Positions 5,156 through 20,263 of a stretch of DNA of 25,197 nucleotides are shown in pieces (position 1 is the first letter of the stretch; each line of letters begins with the position of its first letter). The stretch covers positions 1 to 25,197 of IMG/VR virus record IMGVR_UViG_3300006879_000020. One strand, 5' to 3'. The position numbers and the translations under genes were made by a program. The notes beneath the pieces were generated by a model that was not told the origin of the DNA, searched no databases, and was given only the letters and a program-made list of their open reading frames with translations. Source of the DNA: a virus. Taxonomy: Duplodnaviria > Caudoviricetes.

Positions 5156-5163
5156 TTCCAGTT

Positions 5164-5200
5164 TAATAAGAACGGGGGCAGGGTACTACCCTACCCCCGT
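5164..5200 (-). terminator. Intrinsic terminator/attenuator after the major capsid gene
   Basis: Minus strand ACGGGGGTAGGGT-AGT-ACCCTGCCCCCGT forms a 13-bp stem with one G-U pair, followed by TCTTATT. Confidence 0.7.
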
Positions 5201-5221
5201 CGGTTGAACTTGTGTGGTCGA

Positions 5222-6343
5222 TTACGCTCCCGCCACCTCTTTCGTGTTCACGGGCGATTCGGTCGGATTGACTACCTGCACCGGAATCGTCGTCACGGGC
5301 GTCATGGTCGATTTCAGGATGTCGAACTTCATGATCGGGTTGGCGATCTCCGCAGGGTCGGAATTGTAAGCCACCATGTAGGCCACGTCTACCGAGAAGC
5401 CGTAGTACTCCTTGTGTACGCACTTCATGTCGGCCGAAGCAGCGCCGGCAATACCCGAGTAGTCGCCTACGCTGTCCTTGAAGAATGTACCGACGGGAAT
5501 GTTCAGGACGGGCAGCGTCGAGACATCCCACTCACCCATCGGGCCGAGGTCGGTACGACGCAGGGCTTCGCGATCCACGCGGAACAGCATCCCCACGTTG
5601 CCGTGCTCGACGGCATAACCGCTCGCATAGGCGCTGGATTCGTTGGCGACATTGTTCGTGAAGTGGAAAATCTTGTTCAGGTACTCGTTGCGCTTGTCTA
5701 CATCGTTGTAGAGACCGTGCTGCGCGAGTTTCGTCACGAGGGCCTGAATTCCTGCGTTGCCGACGATGTGCATGCGGCCGAAATAGTCGTTTGCAGCCAT
5801 CATCGCGTCGAAATCGGCAAGGGCATCCTCACGCTGCACCCACGGCACCTGCACCGAGTTTCCCGCCTGCGTGTAAGTCAGCAGTTCTTTGAACACCTGC
5901 GTTTTGTTGGCCGAAAGAGCCGCGACCGCACCGGCATCGAGCGTGTCGGCCAGCTTGTAGAGGTACTTCAGGAACTTGCGCTCCCAGTCCTTCTGGATTC
6001 TGATTTCGTTGTTGTCGTACAACGTCGGAACCATCGTGAATCCCCACGCATACGTTACGAAGGTAACGTTTACGAGTTTCGACGTATTCTCGTCGTCGGC
6101 GATGTCGCAGCTACGGACATTCGAAATGGTTACTTCACCGTCGTAGTCGATGACGGGGATTTGCACTTCGCGGCCGTTGGCGGCGAAAGCACGCTCTCGC
6201 AGTTCGTCGGTGATGATCCCATCGCGGGCATAGGACTGCTCGACGAACAGGTCAAGCGCACCGTAACGGGACGGGCGGGCCATATTCTTGTCGAGGTCGG
6301 AATTAACCCGCAGATTCTGCATTTTTGTTTCGATAAGAGACAT
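5222..6343 (-). CDS. Major capsid protein
   Basis: 373 aa, after a scaffold-like gene and before a terminator; strongly biased codon usage; GREVQIPVIDY-type segment. Confidence 0.8.
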   Translation of the reverse strand: MSLIETKMQNLRVNSDLDKNMARPSRYGALDLFVEQSYARDGIITDELRERAFAANGREVQIPVIDYDGEVTISNVRSCDIADDENTSKLVNVTFVTYAWGFTMVPTLYDNNEIRIQKDWERKFLKYLYKLADTLDAGAVAALSANKTQVFKELLTYTQAGNSVQVPWVQREDALADFDAMMAANDYFGRMHIVGNAGIQALVTKLAQHGLYNDVDKRNEYLNKIFHFTNNVANESSAYASGYAVEHGNVGMLFRVDREALRRTDLGPMGEWDVSTLPVLNIPVGTFFKDSVGDYSGIAGAASADMKCVHKEYYGFSVDVAYMVAYNSDPAEIANPIMKFDILKSTMTPVTTIPVQVVNPTESPVNTKEVAGA

Positions 6344-6371
6344 AATAAAAAAGTTAAATAGTTAATACTTT

Positions 6372-6392
6372 CGAAGCTGACCCTTTGCCCCG
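6372..6392 (-). promoter_or_regulatory. AAGGGU-loop RNA hairpin upstream of the major capsid gene
   Basis: CGGGGC-AAAGGGTCA-GCTTCG: 6-bp stem with two G-U pairs, 28 nt before the ATG. Confidence 0.6.
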
Positions 6393-6404
6393 TTGGTTAT
6401 CGTT

Positions 6405-7349
6405 TTATCTGAGAGGTAGCTCCTGGACTTTGTTCTCCGCCCGAATCTTACTGTGCTCATCTGTGAATTCGGGCGTCCCTTTCACGAACCCGTCACGGCA
6501 AAGCTGCTCGACGATCATCTCGTCGGCCTCTACCTGCGTACGGGCACCTCCGATGTCGTATCGGCTGCCGCCCGCATTCCCCGGCGTGGCTTTTGTCCCG
6601 GCACCGGCCTGCTTCTGTCCCTCGGCCAGAATACCGAGCGCCGAGAGTTTCTGCGTGAGCAGTTCGGTCGCGGTGAAAGGTTGCAGGCCGTTGGCCGGGT
6701 TGTTGAGCTGCACCCCGTTCTCGTCCTTGAAAACAAGCCGCTGCCCGCCGTTGCCGTCGGGGATGAACTCGGGTTTATGAGCCGTTTCCAGCTCCTTGAC
6801 GATGTTCTGCACGGCCAGGTCGGCCACAGCCTGCGGAATCTCGGGTTTGAACTTGAGCGCCGCGGCTGCTCCCTTGATCTCGTAGCCAATTTGCAGCGCG
6901 GTCATCTTCGATACGCTCTCTTTTGTCAGCTTATCCAGGTCGGCCTTCGTGTCAGCGTAGAGTTTTTTGGTGTTCTTCAGCTCGGCCTCCTTTGCAGCCA
7001 ACTGAGCCGAAAGGTCGCCGGCGCCCCCGGCCTTCAGTTGCTCTCTCAGCGCATCACGCTCGCCCGTCAGCGCGGTGACTTTCTGCTGGAACTCATCGGA
7101 CTTATCGGCTCGGCGCTTGATCTCGCCGGCCGCGCGCTTGAGGTAGTCGTAGGTCTTTTCCCCCTGCTGCTTGGCAATCCCGGTCGCTGCCAGGATGTCG
7201 GCATCGTAGTTGCCGTGCAGTTCTCCGATTTTGTTGCCGATGACGGTATTCTCGTCATTGCGAGAAAGTGTTTCGATCAGGCTGACCTGCTCGTCGGAAA
7301 GCCCCGCGAGGGATTCATTCGCCCGAAGCGTTTCTTTTGTAAGTGCCAT
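6405..7349 (-). CDS. Capsid scaffolding protein
   Basis: 314-aa charged coiled-coil protein with a Gly-rich C-terminal linker (QAGAGTKATPGNAGG), directly upstream of the capsid gene. Confidence 0.75.
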   Translation of the reverse strand: MALTKETLRANESLAGLSDEQVSLIETLSRNDENTVIGNKIGELHGNYDADILAATGIAKQQGEKTYDYLKRAAGEIKRRADKSDEFQQKVTALTGERDALREQLKAGGAGDLSAQLAAKEAELKNTKKLYADTKADLDKLTKESVSKMTALQIGYEIKGAAAALKFKPEIPQAVADLAVQNIVKELETAHKPEFIPDGNGGQRLVFKDENGVQLNNPANGLQPFTATELLTQKLSALGILAEGQKQAGAGTKATPGNAGGSRYDIGGARTQVEADEMIVEQLCRDGFVKGTPEFTDEHSKIRAENKVQELPLR

Positions 7350-7372
7350 AATTTATTTACCCTTTATAAATT
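7350..7372 (-). promoter_or_regulatory. AAGGGU-loop RNA hairpin abutting the scaffold start codon
   Basis: AATTTAT-AAAGGGTAA-ATAAATT: perfect 7-bp stem immediately followed by ATG. Confidence 0.6.
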
Positions 7373-7379
7373 CGTGTGA

Positions 7380-7766
7380 TTACTGCTCCTCCTCCGAATT
7401 TTTGTCGGACTGCCTCTCCCCCGCGCTCTCGTCCGGCTTCCCGTCGTCTTTCTTGGTTGCCGGTGCAGGTGCTTCTCCCGCACGGATGACCGTTACCGGC
7501 GTAGGAGTTGCCGGAAGTTGCGCCTCGGCCAACGTCTTCGCCGTGGGCATGTAGAGCAATTCGACCGTGTAGCCCTGCTTATAGAGCTGATCCTTGACTT
7601 TGGCGTACTCGCGGACGCCGAATTTCTGCATGCGGGGACGTGAGAGTTTCTGCCCCGTCCGTTTGTCGTAATTAGGCTGTTCCAGTGTTACGTGGACATA
7701 AGCCTCATCGCCCGGAGCCGGTTTAAACGGCTCCTGCGCCTTCCTTGTTTTGTTGTTCTGTGCCAT
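7380..7766 (-). CDS. Hypothetical head-module protein
   Basis: 128-aa ORF between portal and scaffold with a low-complexity C-terminus. Confidence 0.7.
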   Translation of the reverse strand: MAQNNKTRKAQEPFKPAPGDEAYVHVTLEQPNYDKRTGQKLSRPRMQKFGVREYAKVKDQLYKQGYTVELLYMPTAKTLAEAQLPATPTPVTVIRAGEAPAPATKKDDGKPDESAGERQSDKNSEEEQ

Positions 7767-9463
7767 AGTTTCTCAAAGCGTTAGTGATTCGTTGTATTTT
7801 GGTGTCGTGTGGAATGTTCACGCCGAAATCGACTACATTCATATTCTCCCGTTCGAAGCGTGAGATAAAGGCTGAAAAATTCAGTTTCACAGCCAAATCA
7901 GCCGGGTCGGCCAGCCCCTTGTCATTGAGTTCCAGCAACTCGCTGCGGGTCAGGTGGCGGTATGGTTCCAGCTCCGAAAGGATCATCATGCGTTGCAGTT
8001 GCAACGGATCGTTCCGGTACTCGGTTTCGATGATCTTGCGAGACAAGGCATCCAGCTCGGCGTCCGAGGCGCCCTGCTCCTTGGCCTTGGCGTAGCGGGC
8101 CCGAAGTTCCGATGCGGTAGTCAGGTAGAACTCAGTACCCCAGTCGACCGTCGCCGACGTGAAACCCGAACCGTAACGCAGGCGGCAGACCGTTTCATCA
8201 ACGAACCGCTGGGCATTTTCGAAATTACGCTTCACGGTCGTCAATACCGTCGTGCGGTTTTCGAAGGATGCCTCAACCTGCATTTCGTTGACGGCCTGCC
8301 CGTTGACCTCCTCGTTATCCACGCCGACACAGTTGCGGATGATATTCCGTTCCATGCGCTCTACCTCCTCGACATTGTAGTCGAGCGAATTGCGGTCGAC
8401 CGTCAGTATCTGCACCGGATTACGCAGGTCGGGGCCGTTCGGCTGCGGGACGGGAACCTCGACGAATGAGCCGGGGCCGCTGAGACGCTTGTTGCCGCAC
8501 ACCGGGCATCGCTCCACGGCACCGGTCGTCGGGATGATCTTGTAGTTCCCGTTTTTGTTACGCAGGAACCCGCCGTCGCAATAATCCCCCGAATCGTCGT
8601 TATGGAAATTGCAATCCATTTCGTAACCCGAATACACCGGATAAGGCGCATACAGATCGAGGCATTGCTTCGATATGGCAAAGAACAGATACCAGTCGAG
8701 CGCGGCAAGCTCCTTCGACAACGGGCTGCGCTTGATCTCCGGCTCGCGCAGATTCACAGGTGTCGTCCAGAAAAAGCGGGCGGGACAATAGCCCAGTGTG
8801 TGCGGGTTATTCACGAGCAGCTCCCCCACGTTGCCGTCCTTTCCCTTGGAACAGACGGTAGCGCTCCTCGTCGAAAACTGCGATCCGGTCGTCACCGACC
8901 TCGAAAATGATCCATTCGAAATTCGAGAAGCCTTGCTTCGTACGGTCGATCCGGAAGTCGATCACCCGCTCGATCGACAGCCAGTAGAAATACGGCTCGG
9001 GCAACTCTCCGGCCTGCACTTCGGGCACGTCCACGATCAGCACCGAGTTGATCCCCGTCTGAAAGTGTTCGAACCCGTCCGTCTGCCACACCGTAGGCTC
9101 GTCGAGCCTCTCGGCACGGTATTTCTCCCAATCGTCCCGCTGCGCATTGTCCCGGAATTGGTAGGAGAAAACCGGATTGCGCCCGTCGAATACGCGGCTG
9201 AGTTTGTCGAAAATAACCCCCGTCAATTCATTCGTCTTGACCGGAAATCGAAACAGCGAGAGGAACGTAACGAACTTGTCGTGCGGGATCAAACCTTCGA
9301 CCCAACCGAGGAACTGCGTTGCCATCGCGCCCATTCGGTACTGGTCAAGGTTCGTTTCCGCATGAAATCGGATGCGTTCCTGCTGCCGGATAGCCTTATG
9401 CTTCGTCCCGCCGTGGTGCGGCGTTCTTATCCGGTCGCGTATTTCTTCGATGCTCAATCCCAT
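7723..9463 (-). CDS. Portal protein, split by a 1-base insertion near 8840-8842
   Basis: ORFs 8807..9544 (true start MGLSIEE at 9463) and 7723..8895 join as ...YRLFQGKDGNVGELLVNNPHTLGYCPARFFW if one T of TTT 8840-8842 is removed, giving about 580 aa with an inserted Cys-rich segment. Located after the terminase. Confidence 0.8.
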
Positions 9464-9611
9464 TTGCAAGGGTGAATGTGAAGGGTGAATCTTCGGGTAA
9501 TTTCCAGCCGCCGTTGCGCGGCATGCGCAGGAGCCTTTCGGCATGCTCCATCGAGTACTCCCGCTTCATGCCGTCGGCGGTAACGAGCGTCACTTTCGTT
9601 TCGCGCTTCAT
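9396..9611 (-). CDS. Small hypothetical protein
   Basis: MKRETKVTLV...HAERLLRMPRNGGWKLPEDSPF, 71 aa, overlapping the portal start. Confidence 0.65.
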   Translation of the reverse strand: MKRETKVTLVTADGMKREYSMEHAERLLRMPRNGGWKLPEDSPFTFTLANGIEHRRNTRPDKNAAPRRDEA

Positions 9612-9624
9612 GGTTTCCGGGAAT

Positions 9625-10263
9625 TTATTCGGCAGCGGCCACAAGGTCGCGCAGCGGGTTGAAGTCGGCAGGCTCGACAATCACGAAATCGTCCGACCAC
9701 CCGGGCAGGAACGAGAACGAGATATTGTTGCTGTCGGGGGCTTCGAATCCGCCCAGCCCCTTATCCGACACGAATACCGACTGCACGGGGATCGGATAAT
9801 AAGCCGTCTTAGACGGTTCGCCCGCGGTCGTTTCCTTGCGACAGCCGATGTTGCCGTGTTCATCCACCAGGTAGACACCGACATTCTCGCACATCAGTTC
9901 CTTCATGGCCTTGATCGTGTCCTGCTGAGATCGCAGAATTTTAGCCGTGAAGGCCGTCGGATTCGTGCCGAGGATGATTTCGACACCGCCGACGGTGGCA
10001 TTGCCGCCGCCATACGTGCGGGCCTCGCCCGGTTCTGCCGTGGGTTCGACGATAAACGGCGTGATGACGGCCTTCGTGCCGTCAGTCGCCGACAGGAGCG
10101 GCGTCCAGGACGCCAGTTTGGTAGGGTCGGCGATGCTGTTGAGCTCGTCGCCCGATTTGTAGATGCGCTGGAAGATCAACTTCTGCACCTGCCCCATGCT
10201 CTCCGGGCAATCGTGTACCGGAATAGTCTGAAGCGATGCGCCGCGCGGACAACCACAATTCAT
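9625..10263 (-). CDS. Putative major tail (tube) protein
   Basis: 212 aa, beta-rich and acidic, with CPESMGQVQKLIFQR and PDSNNISFSF motifs; no other tube candidate lies before the tape measure. Confidence 0.6.
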   Translation of the reverse strand: MNCGCPRGASLQTIPVHDCPESMGQVQKLIFQRIYKSGDELNSIADPTKLASWTPLLSATDGTKAVITPFIVEPTAEPGEARTYGGGNATVGGVEIILGTNPTAFTAKILRSQQDTIKAMKELMCENVGVYLVDEHGNIGCRKETTAGEPSKTAYYPIPVQSVFVSDKGLGGFEAPDSNNISFSFLPGWSDDFVIVEPADFNPLRDLVAAAE

Positions 10264-10293
10264 ACGTGAAATAAATTTATCGGTTAAACATCC

Positions 10294-10309
10294 GGGCGAC
10301 CCTTAGCCC
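10294..10309 (-). promoter_or_regulatory. AAGGGU-loop RNA hairpin upstream of the tail tube gene
   Basis: GGGC-TAAGGGTC-GCCC, 30 nt before the ATG. Confidence 0.55.
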
Positions 10310-10319
10310 ATTTTCATCA

Positions 10320-10341
10320 CAAAGGAAAATATTATTTTGAG
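10320..10341 (-). promoter_or_regulatory. Candidate late promoter (CTCAAAA-N7-TTCCTTTG)
   Basis: Degenerate Bacteroidota -7 box preceded by CTCAAAA; the same arrangement occurs at 12362-12383. Confidence 0.5.
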
Positions 10342-10352
10342 GCAGATCGGCG

Positions 10353-11828
10353 TCAATTCCGAACTCTTACGCCGCGCGTCGGTTTTCGGGTGCCGTTTTC
10401 ACACTCGGCGATACCCGTAAGCACGTCGGCAACCTCATCGTGCGCGTTGGCCTTGAAGATACGTTTGAACGAAACGGCATCCGCATAGAACCGCGGCCAG
10501 CGCTGCGCCCAGTCGTAGGGCATGACGATACACTGCTTCACGGTGGGGGCATAGGTGAGGATGCGCGATTCCTTGTTGCGCGACTGGAAGAACGGCGTGA
10601 TCTCCACGCCGGGGCACTTCGAGCGGAGTTTGCGGGCGAAATAGCCGCCGCCGTTGTTGCTCTCGATCATCGCGGCCCGCGTCTGGCTCCTGGAAAAAAG
10701 CATCGGCAATAACTTCTCCGCTTCGTCGAGGTCACTGCCCGTATACACTATGTCGGTGACGTAACATTTGCAGAATCCGACGCCGTCGACGACTTCGGCG
10801 GCGCCGACGCGGTACGAAACGGACAGCGTATTATCCGTGCCCGTATCGGCAATATCCGTATAGTTTTTATTCCCGAAGGTTGCGGGCAGCTCCGTATAGG
10901 TCTGCCACTCCCGGCCATAGAGCGCCCCTGCCTCGTTATAGGGGTTGCCCTGGCACATGCATTCGAATATCTCCGGGGCGAGTTTACGCGAGTTCAGAAG
11001 CCGTTCCAACGAATGCCGCTGCGGCCACAGGGCCTCTCCGACTTGCCGGGGGTCGAGCTCTGTCGGCTCGCTCTCCTTTATCGCCTGGAAATTGATCTTC
11101 GCCCAGGCATCCGCGGGGAAATTGTCGAGCTGCCCCCACGAGGTAACCTCGATCACCTTGTCGTGCTTCTCCAATCGGCCGATCAGGTCGTCCTCATGCC
11201 AACGCGTGAATACGATAAGCTGCTGGCTGTCGTTGTGCAGGCGGAAGTTTGCAACGGAGGTGTACCACTCCCAGCAGGATTCCCGGATAACGGGAGAATT
11301 ACCCTCCTCCGCATCCTTATACAGGTCGTCGATTATCAGGACGTCGACGGGATTGCCCGTAAGACCGCCGCCACGGCCGACACTCAGCAGACTACCCCGG
11401 TGGCCGATGATTTCGAACTCATTCGCGGTGTTGATCGCATCCTCCGCCGAGGTGCGCCCTTTGCTGATACGTGTATCGGGAAACAAGTCCGCGTATTGCG
11501 GGGTTCGCATATAACGCTGAATCTCTCGGTTGAATTTCTTGGCCTTTCCGTCATTGTAGGAAGCCACGGCAATACGGGCATCCGGATTTTGGCCCAATAT
11601 CTTGGCCGGAAGCAGACGGGTCGAACCTTCGCTCTTACCATGTTGCGGAGGAATCGACACGATCAACTTTCTGATCTTCCCCGTAGCGAACCTATGCAGG
11701 ATTCGGTAGTAGACGATATGGAACTGCGCGAACTCCAGCCGCGGGTTGACATACTTGGCAAAAAGCCCGAAAATATTCCGAGCTTTCTCCATACGCCATT
11801 GGCTGAGGGTATTTGCGTCTATCTTCAT
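10353..11828 (-). CDS. terL: Terminase large subunit
   Basis: Walker A IPPQHGKS, LTG..VDVLIIDD Walker B, FTRWHEDDL, nuclease motifs DIADTGTD, IESNNGG and HDEVAD. Confidence 0.97.
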   Translation of the reverse strand: MKIDANTLSQWRMEKARNIFGLFAKYVNPRLEFAQFHIVYYRILHRFATGKIRKLIVSIPPQHGKSEGSTRLLPAKILGQNPDARIAVASYNDGKAKKFNREIQRYMRTPQYADLFPDTRISKGRTSAEDAINTANEFEIIGHRGSLLSVGRGGGLTGNPVDVLIIDDLYKDAEEGNSPVIRESCWEWYTSVANFRLHNDSQQLIVFTRWHEDDLIGRLEKHDKVIEVTSWGQLDNFPADAWAKINFQAIKESEPTELDPRQVGEALWPQRHSLERLLNSRKLAPEIFECMCQGNPYNEAGALYGREWQTYTELPATFGNKNYTDIADTGTDNTLSVSYRVGAAEVVDGVGFCKCYVTDIVYTGSDLDEAEKLLPMLFSRSQTRAAMIESNNGGGYFARKLRSKCPGVEITPFFQSRNKESRILTYAPTVKQCIVMPYDWAQRWPRFYADAVSFKRIFKANAHDEVADVLTGIAECENGTRKPTRGVRVRN

Positions 11829-12266: not shown

Positions 12267-12338
12267 TAGCGGGGATGGGATTTGAACCCACGACCTCCGG
12301 GACATGAGCCCGGCGAGCTACCGCTGCTCCACCCCGCA
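12267..12338 (-). tRNA. Initiator-type tRNA-Met (CAT)
   Basis: TGCGGGG TG GAGC AGCGGTA GCTC G CCGGG CTCATGT CCCGG AGGTC GTGGG TTCAAAT CCCAT CCCCGCT A. Initiator hallmarks: 1:72 mismatch, A11:U24 and three consecutive G:C pairs in the anticodon stem. No encoded CCA. Confidence 0.9.
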
Positions 12339-15029: not shown

Positions 15030-16262
15030 TTAATCGAACAGCGCCCCTTGAACAGTAGCACCCGGACTTCTGATGGCCTCCGCCCACCGTTTATGAACAA
15101 ATAGCCGCTCCCCCCGTTTTATCGTTTTAGTCGCCGAATAGGTGCACGTTTTGTCAGTACTCGCAATACACACGAAGTCATCCGGCATGTAATATTCCGA
15201 AACGAACACCGGGAAATCTCGATGTCGAATCCAGTCGAAAAATCGTTCATGGTCAAAGTCGTGCAAATATCCCGATGTGTTGGCATATGGCGGATCGCAG
15301 TATACAGTTGCATCCGACGGAACGGCAACATCGGTGTAATCCTTTCGGGATACTTGCAACCTTTCCAAATTTTGCAGCCTTTGCAGCCTTTGCAGCCTTT
15401 GCAACCTTTCCAGCCTTTCCAAACTTTGCAAACTGTACAGACTTTCCAGGCTTTTCAAACTTTGCATCCTTTCCGGGCTTTTCAAACTTTTCAGACTTTC
15501 GTTTAAGGACGCCCACGGAATAGTTAACGCCGGTAAAATTTCTTGCAACTTCTCGTATTGCTCGGAGGTTGGCAACAGCCATTGAGATTCGCCAAAATAA
15601 ATGGCTACTCATCTGATTTCCAAGGTGTCGATTGACATCTTCTTGCGTAAGACCGGATAATTTCAGGGCATTCTGTAAATACCCCCGCAACTCCGTCGAT
15701 TTGGCCCGAAAAACATCCTTATGTATTGATGCCGTGTTTAATGTACCATCGGCGTTGTATTGGGGTATCACACCGCATTCTTCGCACAGCTTTAACGCCT
15801 TTTGCGTAAGTTCTCCTATTTCTTCTTGGTTTTTTTAAATTCCCTGATAAACCCATTCCATGCCATGCGTGCTTCGCCGGGTGTTTTCGCAAAAAATATC
15901 GCATGAAGGTGCTTTTTGAAGCGCTCTACTTCCGGAGCATACAAATAGGATTTCATATCATTCCCAAAACTCCAACACAGCCTCACGTAGGGGTCGCTAT
16001 CTTTGAGGCGGAAGAAATCGTCCCGGCTGATCCATCGGTGCTCATTCTGATATTTCCCGGCAATAGCATCGCGGAATACTTGGGGGTATTCCGTAATATC
16101 GTTTGCTATGAATCGCTCGAATTTCCCGGACAGCATCGCGGCGTGAGTTATCGAACAACCTCCGGCAAATAAGTCTACAAATGTATGCGAATGGGGAAGG
16201 TTAGAGACAACCCACTTCGCAATGCTGTTTTTACTGCCCTTGTATGGTAATCCGTAGTTCAT
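15030..16262 (-). CDS. Dam/D12-class N6-adenine DNA methyltransferase, interrupted by two homopolymer frameshifts (about 15830-15836 and 15599-15601)
   Basis: YGLPYKGSK, VDLFAGG.SI, IAND at the N-terminus; YCDPPY, FDHERF, VFVSEY at the C-terminus; the middle segment is in another frame. Confidence 0.88.
15353..15500 (-). repeat. Degenerate 9-bp tandem repeat encoding (L-Q/E/K-S/R)n inside the methylase
   Basis: Plus strand TTGCAGCCT x3 exact plus variants (TTGCAACCT, TTCCAGCCT, TTCCAAACT, TTGCAAACT); protein SLKSLESLYSLQSLERLERLQRLQRLQRLQNLERLQ. Confidence 0.9.
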
Positions 16263-16276
16263 ATTATATTCCAATA

Positions 16277-20118: not shown

Positions 20119-20263
20119 CGGAGAGGGCGGGATTCGAACCCGCACGAAAGCTACTGCTCTTCGCTTTCAACCGGCCGGAAATCGTGGCTTTATTCATGTG
20201 CAGGTCGCATCTGCTGGCATACACTATTCCGACAGGTGCGCTTACCTGTTGCGCTACCTCTCC
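20119..20263 (-). ncRNA. tRNA-like RNA with Ser-like acceptor stem and greatly extended anticodon arm
   Basis: GGAGAGG/CCTCTCC-G acceptor, GCGC-AACAGGTAA-GCGC D arm and GCGGG-TTCGAAT-CCCGC T arm, with about 92 nt between the D and T arms. Confidence 0.8.

Follow-up and report, generated by a model that had tools for sequence, protein, structure and literature searches.

Why should three genes of one phage be preceded by hairpins that share a loop but not a stem? The question is raised by the virus record IMGVR_UViG_3300006879_000020 (CheckV completeness 54%), which we analysed as a single 25-kb stretch of 25,197 nucleotides (nt), hereafter called the window. On its mRNA strand, a short hairpin with a GGG-containing loop stands before each of the genes for the tail tube, the scaffold and the major capsid protein (Table 1), and a preliminary description, made from the letters alone, had taken the three to be one protein-binding site at the RNA level. 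The hairpin sequences, coordinates and distances to the AUG that it gave (30 nt, abutting and 28 nt respectively) are exact. The element is a real, family-wide and uncatalogued cis-regulatory RNA of the B40-8/PDS1/TCUEAP2-type Bacteroidota siphophages, and its best candidate reader, judged from sequence comparisons, is likely to be a patch at the N-terminus of the scaffold protein formed by D49, K65 and Y67.

Conservation of the hairpins in related phages

The window alone is insufficient proof of the hairpins. AAGGGT occurs in it no more often than expected by chance (nine seen, 9.2 expected), its longer leaders fold no better than shuffled sequences (z values of 0.5, −0.2 and 0.8) and, in a fold that takes in 12 nt upstream and 10 nt of the coding sequence, the stem-pair probabilities are 0.08 for the tube, 0.15 for the capsid and 0.63 for the scaffold copy. 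It is the homologues that supply the proof. In 247 loci with a full capsid gene, grouped into 58 clusters at 90% identity and scored strictly for a hairpin of at least three pairs around AGGG(U/A), the hairpin was present in 30/47 tube, 28/50 scaffold and 41/57 capsid leaders, as compared with 1.2–1.7 in shuffled leaders, 0–1 on the antisense strand and 0–4 before each of ten other structural genes (17–56 leaders per gene). With more distant loci included (80 clusters) and a relaxed core, it was found in 41 of 68 tube, 42 of 68 scaffold and 65 of 79 capsid clusters, the highest counts among the ten other genes being 8/76 and 7/67. These data bear out the claim that the element is rare before other structural genes and show that similar hairpins are not equally frequent in shuffled sequence.

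The loop was at first described as a fixed WAAGGGU. Its GGG core is indeed kept, with GAG as a rare variant, whereas the U that follows is not fixed (of 148 sites, 107 have U, 34 have A and 7 have C), and C, U or G may also precede GGG. Across the family the loop reads N-(A>G)-(A>U,C,G)-G-(G>>A)-G-(U>A)-N-(A>G), has a length of 8–9 nt, usually 9, and is carried on stems of 3–7 bp. The capsid site is the most widely kept, in 101 of the 116 genomes in which all three leaders were readable, and the element spans phages of Bacteroidia, Flavobacteriia and Cytophagia hosts. In the Hymenobacter prophage L177 (31% capsid identity), hairpin-like sites can be recognized by eye at all three genes, with the scaffold copy abutting the AUG; automated scoring picked up the capsid site only. 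A scan with the capsid protein of L173 as the query returned no relatives.

All four complete PDS1/TCUEAP2-type genomes have a fourth hairpin copy, sometimes weak, within the long leader of the gene that precedes terL (L260:22438, L393:31676, L394:38510 and L261:42505); the window has a different terS and no fourth copy. The leader in question is approximately 250–270 nt long, purine-rich and belongs to a probable terS, with the hairpin some 75–90 nt 3′ of a TAAATTTG box; the gene itself is annotated as ‘sigma factor’ in PDS1 and ‘RNase E’ in BKO1-3, and resembles ORF044, which stands before terL in B124-14. Divergent lineages have other leader loops, i.e. an AGGU-type loop (L437), a 6-nt loop (L438) and an identical 11-nt loop at both tube and capsid genes (L450), and these are possibly shifted specificities.

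Beyond the family, one exact GC-stem pattern was matched 122 times in viral contigs (24 of 64 parts scanned, not dereplicated). Of these matches, 43 sit 28–49 nt before a tube or capsid gene of the hairpin-bearing phage family, and the remaining 79 have no common position, so that no use outside the family was seen. Rfam 15 at its gathering threshold gave only two tRNAs in the window and no family over the hairpins, and at E≤10 over positions 6200–10500 only two chance snoRNA matches, both off the hairpins, which agrees with the earlier statement that no described motif was recognized. No description of the motif was found in the literature searched, the coverage of which was mostly without subscription papers, nor in the searchable supplements of two candidate-RNA catalogues (PMC10690425 and PMC8040213), whose alignment archives lay outside the search and may possibly list it uncharacterized.

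Base pairing and strand specificity

Covariation was assessed on 173 distinct sites, which were aligned by their loop and not selected to pair, and 610 of the 692 stem positions pair. Swapping the 3′ arms within a gene lowered the number of paired positions from 222 to 186 for tube, from 164 to 111 for scaffold and from 224 to 158 for capsid sites, and none of 2000 swaps equalled the observed pairing in this control, which ignores relatedness. G-U pairs outnumber A-C mismatches (37 versus 10 in the best register and 40 versus 18 in a fixed register), favouring a structure on the mRNA strand. The stems thus covary in orthologues, and the three genes share an RNA-level, loop-specific element, as had been proposed. 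Median stem-pair probability is 0.7–0.94 in the local context and drops with more coding sequence; together with the low values of the window's tube and capsid copies this makes the free hairpin marginal, as is expected of a site stabilized by its ligand.

The same data make it highly unlikely that the sites are DNA-level late-promoter or activator sites, or a nut-like antitermination signal. A TAnnTT(T/A)G box, which resembles the Bacteroidota −7 promoter element, does lie within 45 nt upstream of 58/74 tube sites (modal gap 10 nt) and precedes the fourth site in the terS leader; it accompanies 16/118 capsid and 0/91 scaffold sites. However, the stems vary freely with pairing kept, G-U exceeds A-C, the orientation is fixed and no early regulator is common to all of the lineages. 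At the scaffold gene, moreover, the AUG can be 1–3 nt from the loop or inside the stem, which leaves no room for a transcription start site. In the window the box has an imperfect counterpart before hairpin 1, at a spacing equal to that of the consensus boxes of relatives; it is a putative promoter, and the late transcript is predicted to have hairpin 1 at its very 5′ end.

Position relative to start codons

The distance from the end of the loop core to the AUG is 32–59 nt at the tube, 24–59 nt at the capsid and 1–13 nt at the scaffold gene, where the loop ends 4–5 nt from the AUG in 65 of 91 sites. At the scaffold gene, therefore, a structured site overlaps the initiation region of the gene for the candidate reader itself, as an operator would. 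Structure near a start is reported to lower initiation, and adenines at −3 and −12/−13 to promote it; a bound hairpin at the scaffold start would thus repress, whereas at the tube and capsid genes the initiation region stays clear of the hairpin. Since the scaffold site alone overlaps an initiation region, the three sites are unlikely to work by one mechanism, and the earlier idea of one regulon for three genes stands as regards the shared element but not as regards equivalence of the sites. Hairpin-less scaffold genes are often coupled to the upstream gene, with a gap of 6 nt or less in 14/35, whereas the minimum gap is 12 nt in the 76 with a hairpin.

Least probable of the readings that we considered is that the hairpin presents, in its loop, a Shine–Dalgarno (SD)-like AAAGGG that pairs with the 3′ tail of the 16S RNA. 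The scaffold gene does have a purine run at SD-like spacing, and a genuine AGGAG run occupies this place in the B124-14 clade, which has no hairpin. However, the perfect complement AGGAG occurs in just 1/91 hairpin-bearing scaffold leaders, C, U and G are tolerated before GGG, and the spacing varies from 1 to 59 nt by gene, instead of a fixed 5–10 nt, with the tube and capsid sites at 24–59 nt; on these grounds an SD element was rejected. Bacteroidia ribosomes also ignore SD sequences, according to the accessible text of two papers (PMC7797042 and PMC9976891); the preliminary description had used this as a plausibility argument, and we count it as context. Two further features of leaders were noted. 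In the B124-14 clade (L020, L026 and L029), the scaffold start has a long SD-like AGAAAGGAG run and a stop–start overlap, which is unusual for Bacteroidia. A T(T/A)AAC element lies 10–40 nt before the AUG in 67/116 tube and 85/135 capsid leaders, as compared with 0–28 of approximately 100–130 for four other genes, and may be a signal of its own for high expression.

The scaffold N-terminus as candidate reader

The genes common to the window's lineage and to PDS1, TCUEAP2, AS73P1 and BKO1-3 are only terL and those from tube to tail (blastp at 1e-4, which a small divergent gene could escape), and a phage reader should therefore lie in that morphogenesis module. Lineages that had lost all sites pointed to the scaffold N-terminus, after which we set a residue criterion post hoc, counting the patch as intact when it had D/E49, K65 and Y/F/H67. 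In 135 scaffold clusters from 433 loci the patch co-occurs with the hairpins, being intact in 125 of 127 hairpin-bearing versus three of eight hairpin-less clusters (Fisher p=3e-6, uncorrected for relatedness). The five hairpin-less clusters that have lost it make up four lineages, i.e. the B124-14 clade (two clusters), L149, L461 and L438. Y67 alone, of 798 conserved columns in 11 structural proteins, is radically changed in all four; radical changes per column in these lineages amount to 1.1 in scaffold residues 36–75 versus 0.44 elsewhere, and scaffold segment 40–67 ranks first for such change (17), with portal segment 350–374 second (15). The patch is also recognizable in distant scaffolds whose remaining N-terminal residues are not. 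In addition, the loop at the scaffold gene is GAG instead of GGG in six of the eight hairpin-bearing clusters with E49, probably with two origins.

Of the candidate readers named in the preliminary description, the scaffold is thus favoured by co-loss, whereas the conserved 128- and 71-amino-acid (aa) open reading frames (ORFs) of the module display neither comparable co-loss nor a clear RNA-binding fold in our fold comparisons. That one of these two, or the portal or capsid protein, reads the hairpins, the scaffold patch being a protein–protein surface that co-decayed by chance, we regard as unlikely. Both ORFs are conserved family-wide with no PDB relative, the AlphaFold2 (AF2) model of the 71-aa ORF weakly resembles small ribosomal-protein domains (VIA Z 2.6; its best VIA match is to BRK domains, Z 4.0), and portal segment 350–374 is also changed in the loss lineages. 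However, the 71-aa ORF has one column changed in three of the four lineages and the 128-aa ORF none changed in at least two, and tube–71-aa fusions suggest a tail role for the former. The 128-aa ORF has no PDB fold match at E≤0.001, and its BFVD matches are uncharacterized phage proteins only. Three longer homologues of the 71-aa ORF were found (P0121-P0123); the two that were read are tail tube proteins fused in frame to the 71-aa ORF, and such fusions may point to a role in the tail or to a product of frameshifting.

A host factor (bS1 or the 30S subunit, an RNA-recognition-motif or cold-shock protein, or a nuclease) reading the loop is also improbable. The element would then be a cis enhancer, processing or stability signal for high-copy genes, and it does precede the genes of the three most abundant products, is common to temperate and lytic lineages, and shows a within-genome loop concordance that vanishes once relatedness is controlled. 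On the other hand, its distance to the AUG varies from 1 to approximately 60 nt, it persists across the three host classes although the downstream initiation regions differ, and it co-occurs with a patch on a phage protein. One exact GC-stem form is not enriched in 162 host genomes, with 19 matches versus 33 for the reversed-pattern control in 81 genomes and 11 versus 25 in 81 more (loci not inspected singly), and a host regulon was rejected because these matches do not exceed the control.

Proposed mechanism and the evidence against it

Our preferred reading, to which we give slightly better than an even chance, is that the three hairpins are one mRNA element whose loop is bound by free scaffold protein through its D49/K65/Y67 patch, and that the scaffold would so block its own AUG and have a positive or a tethering effect at the capsid and tube sites. 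Unassembled scaffold would in this way tune the synthesis of the three most abundant morphogenesis proteins. At its own gene, where the hairpin abuts or includes the AUG, bound scaffold would prevent initiation, in a P22-like autorepression. At the capsid and tube genes it would bind outside the A-rich initiation region, where a positive effect or a tether is more likely: tethered scaffold could be kept close to capsid protein as it is made, or the late mRNA could be protected at its 5′ end, and coat and tail output would be coupled to the supply of free scaffold. Least certain in this scheme is the sign of control at the tube and capsid sites. More speculative, and in our judgement rather doubtful, is the fuller proposal that the scaffold carries a previously unrecognized small RNA-binding domain and is a two-way stoichiometry controller, which would turn its own translation off and switch on, or co-translationally chaperone, capsid and tube synthesis, with residue 49 and the middle loop base co-evolving.

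Several observations weigh against scaffold binding as set out here. The patch is not basic-rich and belongs to no known RNA-binding family, and the scaffold N-terminus had no PDB match and no convincing Pfam match. The residue criterion is post hoc, and 152 further loci brought no new loss lineage; the independent losses number just four, including the distant L438. With the portal segment at 15 against 17 for the scaffold, the co-loss peak rises little above background. L168 has lost all sites and yet kept the patch, as L433 and L437 likewise keep it, and L123 and L441 retain sites despite a changed K65; L046, which combines a GAG loop with D49, is a counter-example to the pairing of loop and residue. 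Some lineages, including the B124-14 clade, lack the element, and B124-14 itself has it at none of the three genes. In 35 of the 116 genomes hairpins are present but none is at the scaffold gene, and, with the capsid site the most widely kept, autorepression is not universal or the whole function. Within-genome loop concordance is significant by free permutation but not in nearest-neighbour pairs (6:6, 7:3 and 2:1), and concerted loop evolution was rejected because it is significant only without phylogenetic control. A refolding switch, in which binding frees the AUG, is unsupported as an explanation of activation, and we rejected it as a mechanism of general validity: when the hairpin is held, the start-opening cost falls at the tube gene by a median of 1.3 kcal/mol versus 1.05 in a synonymous control (p=0.026, uncorrected for relatedness), and at the capsid gene by 0.07 versus 0.7 kcal/mol.

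Gene neighbourhood

The window capsid protein is 50–56% identical to those of B40-8, B124-14, PDS1, AS73P1 and TCUEAP2; in the accessible text of PMC10773633, PDS1 is assigned to the candidate family Paboviridae. The minus-strand gene order is terS, terL, tube, 71-aa ORF, portal, 128-aa ORF, scaffold, capsid and adaptor. Capsid, tube and adaptor match PDB chains so named (9ww9/9wwa), whereas the 314-aa gene has no PDB match; this absence and its position before the capsid gene are the grounds on which we infer it to be the scaffold. The PHROG 8193 label ‘major head’ on the tube gene is a mislabelling.

Table 1 Features of the window
Feature	Position	Strand	Remarks
Imperfect Bacteroidota −7 promoter-like box TTCCTTTG	10320..10327	-	One mismatch to TAnnTTTG; 10 nt before hairpin 1
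Hairpin 1, tail-tube leader, GGGC-UAAGGGUC-GCCC	10294..10309	-	4-bp stem, 8-nt loop; 30 nt before AUG at 10263
Tail tube protein (MP2 of B40-8/B124-14), 212 aa	9625..10263	-	PDB 9wwa ‘tube protein’, E 1.1e-63
Conserved 71-aa ORF	9396..9611	-	Minor candidate reader, more likely tube-associated; AF2 pLDDT 80
Portal gene, two frames in window	7723..9463	-	PHROG 7376 matches both halves
Conserved 128-aa ORF (small α/β domain and low-complexity tail)	7380..7766	-	Minor candidate reader; AF2 pLDDT 88
Hairpin 2, scaffold leader, AAUUUAU-AAAGGGUAA-AUAAAUU	7350..7372	-	7-bp AU stem; abuts AUG at 7349; operator-like position
Capsid scaffold protein (inferred), 314 aa	6405..7349	-	Directly 5′ of capsid gene; PHROG 7970
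Scaffold N-terminal patch, residues 36–75 (D49, G57, E64-K65-T66-Y67, Y69, R72)	7125..7244	-	Candidate RNA-reading surface
Hairpin 3, major capsid leader, CGGGGC-AAAGGGUCA-GCUUCG	6372..6392	-	6-bp stem with 2 G-U pairs; 28 nt before AUG at 6343
Major capsid protein (MP1), 373 aa	5222..6343	-	PDB 9ww9 ‘Capsid protein’, E 2e-193

The portal gene of the window is 2 nt shorter near 8848 than those of L001, L003, L004, L005, L180 and L188, all of which are intact (580 aa), and its split frame probably reflects misassembly or a private lesion; a match at 8846 that resembles the hairpin was rejected as an artefact of this split. The portal genes of L013 and L181 are broken differently (140 aa). A GC-rich hairpin followed by a U-rich tract, 3′ of the capsid gene at 5156-5221 (minus strand) and retained in relatives, is a terminator-like site that divides high-copy from low-copy genes. 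The two tRNA-like matches, at the Rfam gathering score, lie on the minus strand at 12267-12338, ending 14 nt 5′ of the terS AUG, and at 20119-20263, where the match spans 145 nt and may contain an insertion. The ORF at 15030-15575 (minus strand) has a tandem three-residue L-x-S/R-L-E/Q repeat and then a methyltransferase-like ‘VYCDPPY’ stretch, and lies downstream of another methyltransferase-like ORF at 15816-16274.

Relation to known systems

How the ratio of coat, scaffold and tail proteins is set from shared late transcripts is poorly known in double-stranded DNA (dsDNA) phages outside a few models, and less so still in those of Bacteroidota. The element is sharply defined (16–23 nt), with natural loss and loop-variant lineages and a named candidate reader with three testable residues, and there are cultured phage–host pairs that carry it (PDS1, AS73P1, TCUEAP2 and BKO1-3) or do without it (B124-14). 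If the proposal is true, it would provide a new RNA-binding domain and a compact translational switch for use in gut Bacteroidales.

The sites for CsrA/RsmA, which are ANGGA in hairpin loops, are similar in their A-N-G-G core within a loop, their free stems and their location in mRNA leaders; they differ in that here GGG (rarely GAG) always keeps its third G and no GGA is needed. A CsrA gene (PF02599) was found in none of five phage records (two complete) and none of five host genomes, whereas the positive controls Escherichia coli, Bacillus subtilis and Thermotoga maritima were detected. A CsrA/RsmA target was rejected on both counts, the invariant GGA being absent, with U after GGG in most sites, and the gene missing from these records. 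Phage translational operators, such as the coat hairpin of MS2/R17 and those of T4 gp43 and RegA, resemble the element as short hairpins with a sequence-specific loop at or over the AUG that is read by a phage protein, which is here a candidate reader. The difference is that here the loop is an 8–9 nt A-N-GGG-W loop in a morphogenesis regulon of dsDNA siphophages, and homology is not expected. The closest parallel is the scaffolding protein (gp8) of P22, which, in work by Wyckoff and Casjens from 1985, reportedly autoregulates its own synthesis post-transcriptionally. The proposed control would in both cases be exerted by a scaffold on its own production, post-transcriptionally and with a site where its own gene begins; here, however, one loop is repeated before three or four genes, two of the copies are far from the AUG, the scaffold sequence is unrelated and the hosts are Bacteroidota. 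By this analogy, the element likely works as a P22-type autogenous operator that has been extended to a small regulon.

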